Shown here one piece after another: positions 42,553 through 46,900 of a DNA stretch of 64,000 nt. Position numbers and translations under genes: made by a program. Origin of the DNA: an uncultured bacterium (lineage in GTDB: Bacteria; Verrucomicrobiota; Verrucomicrobiia; Verrucomicrobiales; DEV007); contig CAXBMO010000025.1 in NCBI GenBank assembly GCA_963977015.1, positions 27,505 through 91,504 of the forward strand, read 5' to 3'. The notes under the pieces were generated by a model, which did not search any database, was not told the DNA's origin, and was given only the letters and a program-made list of their open reading frames with translations. Within the stretch, counting starts at the first letter, position 1, and each line of letters begins with the position of its first letter.

Positions 42553-42861
42553 CGAGGAAACCGACAACGGAGAAGATGAACCTTTCACCCCAACCCCTCA
42601 CTTCGCGACGTAGCGGAATTTGCAAAAAATTCCGACTCCTGCCGTGGCGACTTTCGGAAGATCTCGCATCTTCCGCTACGCTACTTGCCTGTCTGCTGCC
42701 TCTCCACTTTTCTTTGGCTGCGGATGACACCAGACCCGAGCTCCCCGAAAAGCACCTCGCCTTCCTCGAAAAATACTGCCTCGAGTGCCACGACGCGCTC
42801 ACGGAAAAGGGCAAAGTCAACCTTGAAGACATCCCCTTTCAGCAACTCTGTTTTTCTGTCT

Positions 42862-43818
42862 TTATTGGCTGGGGACGAATAGCGGATCCTTCAGGATGCG
42901 GTTGGCGAGGCAGACGAGTTTTCGCATGACTGCGGTTAGCGCAACGTGGTGGGCCTTTCCCTTCGCCCTCAATCGCTCATAAAATGCTTTCAGAATGGGG
43001 TTGAAGCGCACCGCACAAAGTGCCGGCATGTAGAGGCTTCGCCGAACCAAGGCGCGTCCTCCGTGAATGCTCCGTTTTCCCCTCCAGGCCCCACTGTCGC
43101 GGTTGAGTGGCGCAACTCCGACCAGTCTGCTGGCTTGCTTGTCGCTGATGGATCCCAGTTCGGGCATCTCTGCAATCAAAACCCCTGAAGTGCCGGGGCC
43201 CAGTCCTTTGATCTGCTCGAGCTTACGGGCTTTCTCCTTCAACTCGCGGTTGGCTTCAATAAGCTTCTTGATCCGGTCCTGACAACGCTCAACGCGCCCC
43301 TGGAGGAAGCGGATCGAGGCCCGCAGGTCGCCTTTCACGTAGTGATCGGTGGTCTTCTGAAGGGTGATTTTCTCGCGGGAGAGCTGCGCAGTCAGACGCT
43401 CTTTGCGGCGTACGACAGCCGAGAGCTCCACCTGCTGCGGAGAGGGGCAAACGGCTGCTGGCGGATGGAATGTGTGGCCGTATTCGCAGAGAACCCGGGC
43501 ATCGATCGCGTCCGTTTTTGCCAACTGACCGGCGGCTCTGGCGAAGTCCCGGACTTGCCGGGCGTTCACGGAACTGACGGCGATATGGTGAGTAAAGCAG
43601 AACTCCAACAACGCCTTTTCGTAGCCACCGGTGGGCTCGCAGACAATGTGGATGGGCTCGGACAGCTTCTTGAGTTCACCAAGCAAACCGCGCAATCCAG
43701 CGGGGGTGTTGGCGAAGCTTCGAGGCTGCTGAAGTTGACGATGGTGAAGGTCGAGTTTGTCTTTGCAAACATCGACTCCTACGTAGTATTTAATCGAGTA
43801 ATCTGATTTTGATTTCAT
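42862..43818 (-). CDS. IS110-family DEDD recombinase/transposase
   Basis: [25 protein letters not shown] (DEDD); [16 protein letters not shown] (Tnp-domain Ser), ALTAVMRKL. Confidence 0.95.
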
Positions 43819-43985
43819 CTGTGATTCAACCTTGGAACTTCGAGCTCTAGGGCTCAGGCAACTCTACGAATTGCAGACGATAGTGAGTGGGAGCCCCGAG
43901 CTGAAAGTCGAGTTCAATGGACTCAAGGCCGCACGAGGTCATCCCACTCGCAGCATCCGGGGTGGCCACCCCGGATGCTGCGCTT
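43819..43985 (-). ncRNA. Putative IS110 bridge RNA (5' hairpin, target-binding loop, donor-binding loop)
   Basis: 34-bp perfect palindrome at 43949-43982, then two stem/internal-loop/hairpin modules whose loops match the target and donor junctions. Exact ends unknown. Confidence 0.8.
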
Positions 43986-46900
43986 TCTGGCTCTAACACA
44001 GCCAAATGGCGATTCAAGATTGCACGGATACAACAACCAAGGTCAGCACGATCGCTGAAGCCGAGCTCTGGCAAAAAGTCCTCAACTCGATGAACTCCGG
44101 CGAGATGCCTCCCGAAGACGAGCTCCAGCCGGAGAACACGGAGAAGGCCGACTTCCTCGACGCCCTCGCCCAAACCATGGTCGCAGCGCGGCGATCGCTC
44201 TCCGACTCGGGCGGCGAGATCACGATGCGTCGTCTCAATCAACGAGAATACCAGAACACGATCCAGCACCTGCTCGGCGTCAGAGTGGATGTCAGCACCC
44301 TGCCATCCGATGGCGGCTCCGGAACCTTCGATACCGTGGGCGCTTCGCAGTTCATCTCCAGCGATCAGATCGAGCAGTATCTGAAACTCGGACTCAGCGC
44401 GATCGACGAATTGTTCGAACGTCAGGCGGCGATGGGACAGGACGCAAAAACCTTCCGGGTCGAACCGGAGACCACCGTCAATGTGCAGAGCCGCAAGAAC
44501 ATGGCAAAAATGGAGGAGGTGCAGGAACGCTACCTGCTCTGGAAAGCCGAGGTGGACAAGGCGGCCCTCCTTCCTGAGAACGAGGAAGTTCTCGCGCGGC
44601 TCCGCGAGAAGTACAAGCTCGACGACCTCACCAACAGCATCCGGCTCTATCAGAACGCCAACCTGCTCAAAGGAGCCCCGGATGCCACGAAGTTTGGCTT
44701 CCGCGACGCCAACGCCGCGTCCTTTTCATTCCAAGGCGGATACGGCCGGTCCCACGCCTACCTAAAGCACTATCTTGAGCTTCCTCACTGTGATCGAGGA
44801 ACCTATCTCAAGCTCGCCTGGGGGATCCAGCGCATCGACGTTCTCCCGGATCCGAAAGACGTTCCTCCGGGGACTTACAAGCTCAGGATTCGGGCCGGCA
44901 CGGTGGAAGGTTCCGATCCTTCCCGCCATTTCATTGAGTTCGGCCACCCGCAACGCGTCAACCAGGTTCCGGCCGGATTCTCCAGCCTGCCGATCGGAAG
45001 CCTCCAAGTCACGGGCACGGTCGAGACCCCTGAGATCATCGAGACCACCATCGAAATCGGACTGGACACCCCGCGCGAATTTGGCATCCAGGAACGCAGC
45101 CCTACCAACGGCAAAAGTGTTCGCACTGAATTCTACCGTCACAAGCGGGAGAACGGCTACGGCACGCCTCCCGCGATCTGGGTGGATTGGGTTGAGTTGG
45201 AGGGCCCGCATGAAACCACACCGAAGAGCTGGAAGCAACATCGCGAAGTCGAGGAGCATGCCAACGCCAAGGTCGGCGGAACCTACAATGGCTACTTCAA
45301 AGGCGGCCACGAAAGGGCCGTGGCCTTCCTCGAAACCGGCGAGCCTCAAAAAGGCATCACCGACGAACAGGAAGCGAAGTTTCGCATTCGAGCGTTTGAA
45401 GAAAACGGTCCGACCTTTCGCCGTTACCTCGAAGATCCGCTTACGAAGACCGGCTCATTTCTGACCATCCACAACCTGAACACGGAAGAGTTCATCGCCT
45501 TACCTCCGGAGCAGCCCTCTGGCTGGCGAAAGACGAAGCATGTGGTCGAGGAACTGCCCCCCGGCGAATACAAACTGCGCTTTCGTATCGGCACTGTCGA
45601 GGGCACACCCGAGGAACAGCACTTCGTCGATCTGGGTAGCGTTCCTGACAAGAATCAATTCATCCACCTGGCCACCTATCAGGTAACCGGCTCTACAGAC
45701 GAACCGGAGATCATTGAGGTTCCCGTCTCACTCACTCAGTCCGGCCCTCGCAAATTTGCGCTCCGAGAGAAGCGCGATCCAAAGGGCGATCTCGCTCGCT
45801 ACCGCGCCGCCCTCAAACAGACCGGCGTCGGCCCGAAACCCGCCCTGTGGATCGACTGGGTAGAGTGGGAAGGCCCGCTCGATTCGCCCAACAGCGCGTC
45901 CGCGGGGATGGATTGGTTGGTGAGTAGCGACGCTGATCCAGATGAGTCGTCGCGGGCCCGGAAGACCCTCGAACAATTCGCGTTCCGAGCCTTCCGGGGA
46001 GTCCGCCCGGAGAGCGATTTCCTCGATCGTCTGGCGGCGATCTTCGATGCTCGTCGCGCCGCGGGCGATCCGTTTGATATCGCGATTCGAACGCCGCTCA
46101 GCGTCATTCTCGCCTCGCCCGGTTTTCTCTATTTGAATGAACCGAGCAATGAATCCGAACGCCGCGAACTCACCGATCGCGAACTCGCCGTGCGCCTCGC
46201 CTACTTCCTTTGGAGCGCGCCGCCCGATCAGCAGCTGCTGGATCACGCCGAACGAAACGAACTGAGCAAACCGGAAATCCTCCGACAACAGGTCGATCGT
46301 CTCATTGCCGATTCGCGCTCCGATGAATTCGTCTCCGGCTTTGTGCATCAGTGGCTCGATATGGAGCGTCTCGACTTCTTCCAATTCGATACCACGCTGC
46401 ACCGCCAGTTTGACGAAAGCACGCGGTCCGCCTGTCGCGAGGAAGTCTATCAATCCTTCGCCCATCTGTTTCGTGATTCTGAGCATGGCCGACTCGGCAA
46501 TCTGCTCAAGAGCGACTACATCTTCGTCAACGGCCTGCTCGCCACCTACTATGGTATCGAAGACGTTACGGGGGATGAATTCCAAAAAATCAGCCTGCCC
46601 GCGGACTCACCACGTGGTGGATTGTTAGGCATGGCCGCGATCCACGCCATGGGAAGCGACGGCATCGAGAGCAGCCCCGTCGAACGCGGCGCCTGGGTCC
46701 TGCGCCATCTGCTCCACGATCCCCCGCCTCCAGCTCCGCCCAATGTTCCGCAACTCTCCCGCCTCGCGGACAAACCGCTAACCACTCGTGAAAAACTGGC
46801 CGCGCACATGGAGGAAGCCCAATGCGCCAGTTGCCATCGCAAGATCGACCCAATCGGCTTCGGTCTGGAGAACTTCAACGCAGCCGGCAAGTGGCGAACC

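Follow-up and report, generated by a model that had tools for sequence, protein, structure and literature searches.

We analysed a 64,000-nucleotide stretch of the genome of an uncultured bacterium (contig CAXBMO010000025.1; the whole stretch is hereafter the window) and describe a 1,199-bp IS110-type element that lies on its minus strand at 42843-44041, one CT counted. The element is very probably an intact, single-copy insertion sequence of the IS110 group that comprises one recombinase gene and, upstream of it in the left end, a bridge RNA of the IS621 type. The case rests on the fit between the RNA and the DNA that it would recognize: in this copy three of the four guides are perfect – the right target guide (7/7), the left donor guide (8/8) and the right donor guide (5/5). 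It rests further on the relatives of the element, among which all four guide positions track flanks and ends. The left target guide of our own copy departs from this pattern: the insertion used a site with a full match to the right guide and a partial match to the left.

The nearest full-length relatives occur in three genomes (G041, G400 and G036) from the same order as the window's genome. Their leaders can be aligned with that of our element at a mean column identity of 73%, and both the outer and the inner stems of the target module covary among the four: the outer stem reads GAGUGGGA/UCCCACUC, GAAACAG/CUGUUUC, GCAACAGG/CCUGUUGC and GGGUCCGGUG/CACCGGACCC. All eight outer-stem pairs show compensatory changes. 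The donor outer stem covaries in the family as well (UUCG/UGAA, CUCG/UGAG, CCCG/NGGG, CUUG/UAAG), and an independent consensus fold of all four complete leaders again shows the 5′ hairpin, the two helices of the target stem and the two inner hairpins. From these four leaders we built a covariance model (R1) of both loop modules and searched 93 sources with it: the window itself, loci from genomes, and 80 metagenome loci whose recombinases are 38-50% identical to that of our element. In 67 of the sources the model matched immediately 5′ of the recombinase gene and on the strand of that gene. Outside the seed 63 of 89 sources matched at E≤1 and 61 at E≤0.01; three further weak matches (E 0.23-0.49) were spurious and were dropped. 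In an alignment that was itself fitted to the model 95.2% of cells are paired, as against 67.3% in shuffles and 36-48% when slid, and 19 of 21 pairs show changes on both sides.

Guide positions for the family tests were drawn from the model columns alone, with no selection by hand: at these positions the guides of 58 and 40 related loci follow the flanks of the same loci far more closely than permuted pairings do. When the complement of the right target guide was compared with the five bases past the right CT (nine loci were excluded for want of a right end or of sufficient flank), 249 of 290 positions matched and 39 of the 58 loci were perfect; permuted pairings gave 91.6 ± 8.7, and 0 of 10,000 scored as high. 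For the left target guide the register was fixed by the guide's own CU, with the loss of 15 of 55 loci whose aligned guide has no CU at either position. Compared with the seven bases that precede the left CT, the guide agreed at 195 of 280 positions in the remaining 40 loci (permuted 98.7 ± 7.8; 0 of 10,000 as high), the signal spanning the six core-adjacent bases; with a fixed register in 57 loci the figures were 232 of 399 versus 131.9 ± 8.8. At the level of the family the target loop is thus complementary to both arms of the insertion site. As for the donor loop, the 7-mer of the left guide followed by CT stands shortly past the stop codon in 59 of 67 loci (58 of them exact), and its variants – ACCGTTG, ACAGTCG, ACGGTTG, ATAGTTG and AGAGTTG – occur with matching variant ends. 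With a G.T pair allowed, as is described for IS621 (PMC11208158), the right donor guide locates a left end in 61 of 67 loci; this end is mostly CT-TGTAT, and the variants CTCGT, CTAGT, CTTAT, CTTCT and CTTGG covary.

Two of the relatives are present in several copies. The nine copies in G041 are identical, eight of them having the right flank GAAAG, and their right target guide is CUUUCAG, as in our element. In G400 the left junction reads CACC-CT and the right junction CT-ACC in every one of the five copies, which fits their own guides, CACCCU and GGUAG. As a separate observation, the G041 loci L011 and L030 share a right flank and the G400 loci L039 and L043 a left flank, their other flanks being different; this suggests rearrangements or duplications involving copies.

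On the minus strand our element reads GTGCTGAC-CT-TGGTTG ... AACAGAGTTG-CT-GAAAGG, with CT flanking both sides; its single intact open reading frame (ORF) stands between a non-coding left end of 221 nt and a right end of 19 nt. The first-pass annotation had placed an IS110 element at 42831-44051, and its coordinates and strings all check on that strand. The features, in the 5′ to 3′ order of the element, are as follows.

44042-44049, minus strand: left target flank GTGCTGAC, which belongs to the interrupted host gene by colinearity with a paralog and an ortholog
44040-44041, minus strand: left copy of the CT core; CT stands at both junctions in our element, in G041 (nine copies) and in G400 (five copies)
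43819-44039, minus strand: left end, the 221-nt leader encoding the predicted bridge RNA (fold z = -5.0; covariance-model match)
43986-44006, minus strand: small 5′ hairpin, from the minimum-free-energy structure of our own sequence only and absent from the four-sequence consensus fold
43949-43982, minus strand: 34-nt perfect palindrome (17-nt arms, 100% complementary, no spacer), the 5′ stem-loop directly before the target loop
43885-43949, minus strand: target-binding loop module, with an outer stem, a second helix segment CCUCG/CGGGG and an inner hairpin at 43910-43924
43926-43934, minus strand: left target guide GUGCGGC+CU (GTGCGGCCT), its position set by family covariation; it predicts the target GTGCGGC-CT
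43901-43907, minus strand: right target guide CUUUCAG, complement of CT+GAAAG, 7/7
43899-43900, minus strand: target-loop handshake positions CU, whose C can pair with the G before the donor core (rule from PMC11208158)
43825-43870, minus strand: donor-binding loop module, with outer stem UUCG/UGAA (43867-43870 / 43825-43828) and inner hairpin GAGC..GCUC (43842-43855)
43858-43865, minus strand: left donor guide AGAGUUGC (as DNA AGAGTTGC), which matches the right end AGAGTTG with the core C at 8/8 positions and is followed by a 2-nt linker CU
43831-43835, minus strand: right donor guide CCAAG, complementary at 5/5 positions to CT+TGG of the left end
43829-43830, minus strand: donor-loop handshake positions GU, complementary to AC, the pair of bases that precedes the core in the actual target (rule from PMC11208158)
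42862-43818, minus strand: intact gene for an IS110-family recombinase of 318 aa (Pfam, PDB relatives, aligned catalytic residues)
42843-42861, minus strand: right end, 19 nt past the stop codon, terminating in AGAGTTG (left donor; 42843-42849)
42841-42842, minus strand: right copy of the CT core, read from the sequence
42836-42840, minus strand: right target flank GAAAG, from the sequence and the family test of guide against flank

The left junction accordingly runs GTGCTGAC (44049-44042), CT (44041-44040), TGGTT, and the right junction AGAGTTG (42849-42843), CT (42842-42841), GAAAG (42840-42836); the leader begins TGGTTG, which together with the core supplies the right donor CT-TGG. The element has no terminal inverted repeats, and its sole strong inverted repeat is the palindrome at 43949-43982.

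The leader folds with a minimum free energy of -94.9 kcal/mol (z = -5.0; 0 of 200 shuffles as good) into a small hairpin, the palindromic hairpin and then two modules of stem, internal loop and hairpin. It scores 145 bits (E 3e-44) against the covariance model, of which it is one of the four seeds. The palindrome, noted at the outset as 34 bp within a leader of ~220 nt, is perfect; it is the counterpart of the IS621 5′ stem-loop, and a hairpin sits at the equivalent place in G041, G400 and G036 with compensatory changes. The two loops had also been correctly drawn, the strings of the target loop with its stems and right guide and those of the donor loop with both of its guides being confirmed, the former with compensatory changes in the outer stem and the latter with covarying variants in the family. 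The outer stem of the target loop is GAGTGGGA/TCCCACTC (43949-43942 / 43892-43885) and its inner stem GAGT/ACTC. The handshake between loops in our copy fits the published rule (PMC11208158), target-loop C with donor G and donor-loop GU with target AC, although the corresponding test in the family was weak (33 of 40 versus 27.0 expected). A search of Rfam gave no match to a bridge-RNA family in the region, only chance microRNA-like matches to the palindrome alone with E of at least 0.069.

The non-coding RNA, with its two internal loops, lies upstream of the ORF, and the 19 nt between the stop codon and the right end leave no room for a 3′ RNA. In the IS1111 group the non-coding RNA is found downstream of the ORF. 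One other candidate for the left target guide, UGACCU (43941-43936; 6/6 to TGAC-CT), was rejected: a stretch of the loop, UGACYUCGUGCG, is conserved and occurs also in G400, which has a different target, and UGACCU is moreover partly paired in the second helix of the target-loop stem.

The 318-aa protein carries the Pfam domains PF01548 DEDD_Tnp_IS110 (9e-23, residues 13-159) and PF02371 Transposase_20 (2e-15, residues 198-281). Its closest solved relatives are ISCro4 (PDB 9t56; E 1.8e-37) and IS621 (PDB 8wt6; E 8.9e-37), aligned over residues 11-311, and D16, E61, D103, D106 and S242 fall in motifs conserved with both (GxDxxK, E, KTDxxDAR and (D/E)SG); the catalytic roles of the IS621 residues are given in PMC11208158. 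By alignment the protein has both domains required of the IS110 group, DEDD RuvC-like at the N terminus and Tnp, with the nucleophilic Ser, at the C terminus. The recombinase had been called compact; at 318 aa it is ordinary beside the chains of IS621 (328) and ISCro4 (341 aa). The relatives in G041, G400 and G036 are 51-54% identical in protein, and no full-length relative above 54% was found in searches that covered 61 relatives, two samples of 401 genomes each, one from the phylum and one from the order (overlapping sets, each including the window's own genome), a contig scan and the best 80 metagenome loci. The G041 relative (L011:1489-2436, nine copies) has Thr at the catalytic Ser of the (D/E)SG motif (NKDTG versus NRDSG); its nine copies are identical and it has therefore probably been active recently despite the Thr.

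Judged from the sequence, the element shares the layout of IS621 from E. coli (Durrant et al. 2024, PMC11208160; Hiraizumi et al. 2024, PMC11208158; PDB 8wt6). This had been proposed at the outset, CT core included, and is upheld by the domains, by homology (E about 1e-37), by the 5′ position of the non-coding RNA, by the geometry of the guides and by covariation in the family. Both systems have a two-domain recombinase with catalytic D, E, D, D and S aligned, and an RNA in the left end, 5′ of the ORF, in the order 5′ stem-loop, target loop, donor loop. The details described in PMC11208158 recur: the left target guide has 9 nt and adjoins the inner hairpin, the left donor guide has 8 nt and a 2-nt linker, the right guides end in AG opposite the CT core, and handshake positions come after each right guide. 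The left ends of both start CT-TG. The differences are that the protein relationship is remote (E about 1e-36 over residues 11-311), that our right target guide pairs 7 nt as opposed to 4 in wild-type IS621 (PMC11208158), that our leader, of 221 nt, is the longer one and includes an additional small hairpin, and that our host is a marine bacterium resembling the PVC (Planctomycetota–Verrucomicrobiota–Chlamydiota) group. For the ISCro4 transposase, the best solved relative, the protein alone was compared, and it shares the fold family by sequence (E 1.8e-37, residues 11-311).

Within the family our left end, CT-TGGTTG, differs from the CT-TGTAT of most members found, and our right end, AGAGTTG, from their ACAGTTG. 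The relatives in G400, G041 and G036 resemble our element most, having ends CT-TGGTTG ... AACAGAGTTG-CT besides the alignable leader. They differ in their left target guides (GUUCCUCCU in G041, CACCCU in G400, GACCGCACU in G036); G400 (GGUAG) and G036 also have right target guides unlike ours, whereas G041 shares CUUUCAG and the flank GAAAG. G041 (nine) and G400 (at least five) are multi-copy, in contrast to our single-copy element. G036 holds broken copies only (L022 and L029): the leader of L022 is cut inside the donor loop, and L029 combines a complete leader, with its own guides GACCGCACU / UUUUGGAG, and a truncated ORF.

The element interrupts a plus-strand gene of the PSD/PSCyt family, whose 1,048-aa downstream part contains PSD3, PSD5, PSD4, PSCyt3 and PSD2 domains and which adjoins a DUF1552 gene. 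Removal of the element and one CT restores the frame ..NLEDIPFQ|VSTIAEAELWQK.., with the empty-site joint ..CCCCTTTC-AG-GTCAGC... The restored frame is colinear, without any indel, both with an 82%-identical intact paralog on the same contig (..NLEEIPFQITTIAEAELWQK..) and with an 85%-identical ortholog in a genome of the same genus, which supports the empty target as it had been reconstructed. The junctions share the CT core dinucleotide, and the colinear empty site shows no target duplication longer than this. The families of these neighbouring genes, DUF1552 and PSD/PSCyt, are commonest in clusters from Planctomycetota and Verrucomicrobiota, consistent with the earlier assignment to a PVC bacterium.

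Two observations concern the host gene itself. The paralog (82% aa identity; window ~27083-27979, plus strand, G000:C25:54587-55483) lies 17 kb upstream in the window, and at the homologous point it reads CT-GGAAAG, with no match to the right target guide. The left target flank lies within a small hairpin of the host gene, TCAGC-GATCGT-GCTGA (window 44043-44058, minus strand), directly before the CT; a terminator scan flagged this hairpin because the T-rich start of the element comes next.

By homology with IS621 the element would excise as a circle with the junction AGAGTTG-CT-TGGTT. The donor loop would pair with this junction, AGAGUUGC to the bottom strand and CCAAG to the top strand; the target loop would pair with the genomic site, GUGCGGCCU to the bottom strand and CUUUCAG to the top strand; and the recombinase would then swap strands at the shared CT. 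Transcription, circle formation and activity are thus predicted by analogy, as is programmability of the recombinase, and in all of these respects the element would work like IS621. Contigs of four DNA runs from one marine-metagenome study (X1-X4) were placed on 42400-44500: X1 contigs span both junctions of the element, and no empty-site or circle joint was found in the contigs of the four runs, where a depth of 2-6 is uninformative on mobility.

Several findings weigh against a working bridge-RNA element of this kind. The left target guide, GUGCGGC-CU, faces the flank TGCTGAC-CT and in register matches it at only 2 of 7 positions plus the CT (4 of 9), which places our left arm among the lowest 4 of the 40 family loci; nor is the match exceptional in the genome, where 671 of 1207 CTGAAAG sites score as high. 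A consensus scan of the integrated copy found no sigma-70-like promoter in the leader, although the promoter consensus of the host itself is not known. A promoter formed at the circle junction is likewise unsupported by a simple consensus scan (7/12 at our junction versus 8/12 when integrated), and of 49 cases in the family the junction scored higher in 15, the same in 29 and lower in 5. The element is the sole copy in the 6.9-Mb assembly, neither a DNA search nor a search with the RNA model revealing another, and its nearest full-length relatives are distant. As none of the sequencing runs listed is on record as RNA, one might suppose that the leader is an ordinary 5′ untranslated region whose matches to flanks and ends are coincidental. 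We consider this exceedingly improbable, since across the family the structure covaries and the positions of the four guides all covary with flanks and ends, to a degree reached in 0 of 10,000 permutations.

The bridge RNA had been described as fully decodable, and for three guides it is; the left target guide is where the description fails. Together the guides predict a 14-nt target, GTGCGGC-CT-GAAAG, for which the base composition gives an expectation of ~0.075 sites. The flanks of other copies were to be compared with this sequence; the genome offers no second copy and one exact match (G000:C8:181844-181857; L125:1493-1506), which carries no insertion and is situated close to the 5′ end of a minus-strand ORF of 409 aa that matches no Pfam family. 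At the occupied site a bulge of one DNA base (GTGC[T]GAC) would allow six Watson-Crick pairs and a G.T wobble, a match of 6.5/7. The insertion was a bulge-tolerant event, a half-match event, or an event followed by a one-base deletion in the guide, and one copy cannot separate the three.

It is possible, though we would not put it at even chances, that both target guides led the insertion and that this clade tolerates a one-base offset in the left arm: GUGC would pair, one T would be skipped, and GGC (with a G.T wobble at the A) and CU would pair with ..GTGC[T]GAC-CT, the guide being intact. With a bulge so placed just 4 of the other 1207 CTGAAAG sites, and 0.24% of 14,375 sampled CT sites, score as high as the real one; four of nine G041 left flanks likewise fit better one base off (7, 5, 5 and 7 of 7) than in register (3, 1, 2 and 3), and 2 of 10 poorly matching family loci are rescued to at least 6, as compared with 2.15% (31 of 1443) of non-cognate pairs. 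The model is nevertheless post hoc, having been picked after the data were seen. The two rescued loci are our own element and its G041 relative, the other eight poor matches are not rescued, and word counts over the main bridge-RNA papers listed in a literature search gave no occurrence of 'bulge' and no mention of such tolerance. An account that dispenses with the left arm, and to which we also give something short of an even chance, is that the CT core and the 5-nt right arm, read by the 7-nt right target guide, are enough, any likeness of the left arm being due to chance. A preprint (10.64898/2026.08.31.748434) reports that for IS621 a single complementary half-site plus core recombines in vitro and that half-matches explain 47% of non-target insertion reads. 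The constancy of the G041 right flank (8 of 9), alongside left flanks ranging from 1 to 6 of 7 in register, and the vacancy of the exact 14-nt target agree with such an insertion, but the left arm clearly matters across the family, and chance poorly explains how, with 1207 other CTGAAAG sites on offer, the occupied one falls in the top 0.4% once a bulge is admitted.

Decay of the guide after insertion seems to us unlikely. On that account the left guide fitted its site at the time and then lost one base and underwent an A-to-G change, leaving a drifting single copy that may now be immobile. One deleted base and one transition are exactly what separates the present guide from one that would fit the real site perfectly, the genome does hold a single copy, and a genome of the same genus retains just a decayed 3′ remnant of a related element. 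Yet the ORF is intact, as are the catalytic residues, the two donor guides and the right target guide, and an equal one-base offset occurs with the nine G041 copies, which are identical and hence recently active. The remnant just mentioned (L020, G002:C90) lacks its 5′ part, ends in ..AATGAGTTG-CT-GTTAGG and retains 81% aa identity over residues 265-317 and 75% nt identity over 289 bases.

Returning to the pairing of the left guide across a bulge, a wider claim for the clade is rather doubtful: that the left target guide may engage DNA bulged or shifted by one base with respect to the CT core, the 7-nt right guide leading and the left arm remaining flexible. It is similarly open to doubt whether our insertion and the four of nine G041 insertions are natural examples of the same flexible left arm. 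In G041 three of six CTGAAAGGAGGNNGGA sites are empty, and their left arms match 3, 3 and 5 of 7. These G041 sites (L134-L139) lie at the edge of a repeated unit, CT-GAAAGGAGGnnGGA...CACAGGGCTTCAGCCCTGTG, which is a palindrome like those of repetitive extragenic palindromic (REP) sequences; three of the six units are occupied and three are empty.

The element is a clear but ordinary new example of the bridge-RNA system described in 2024. To a class already explained by the 2024 work on IS621 it contributes a divergent IS110 bridge-recombinase system that can be read cleanly, comes from a PVC-like marine genome and has a natural right target guide of 7 nt; it brings no conceptual change. Its wider use lies in the mismatch between left guide and real site, seen together with a perfect site that stands empty in the same genome. 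Should the bulged or the half-matched reading be true, natural insertions such as this one document a loose reading of the left arm, and such looseness would matter for off-target prediction of engineered bridge recombinases and bridge editors.

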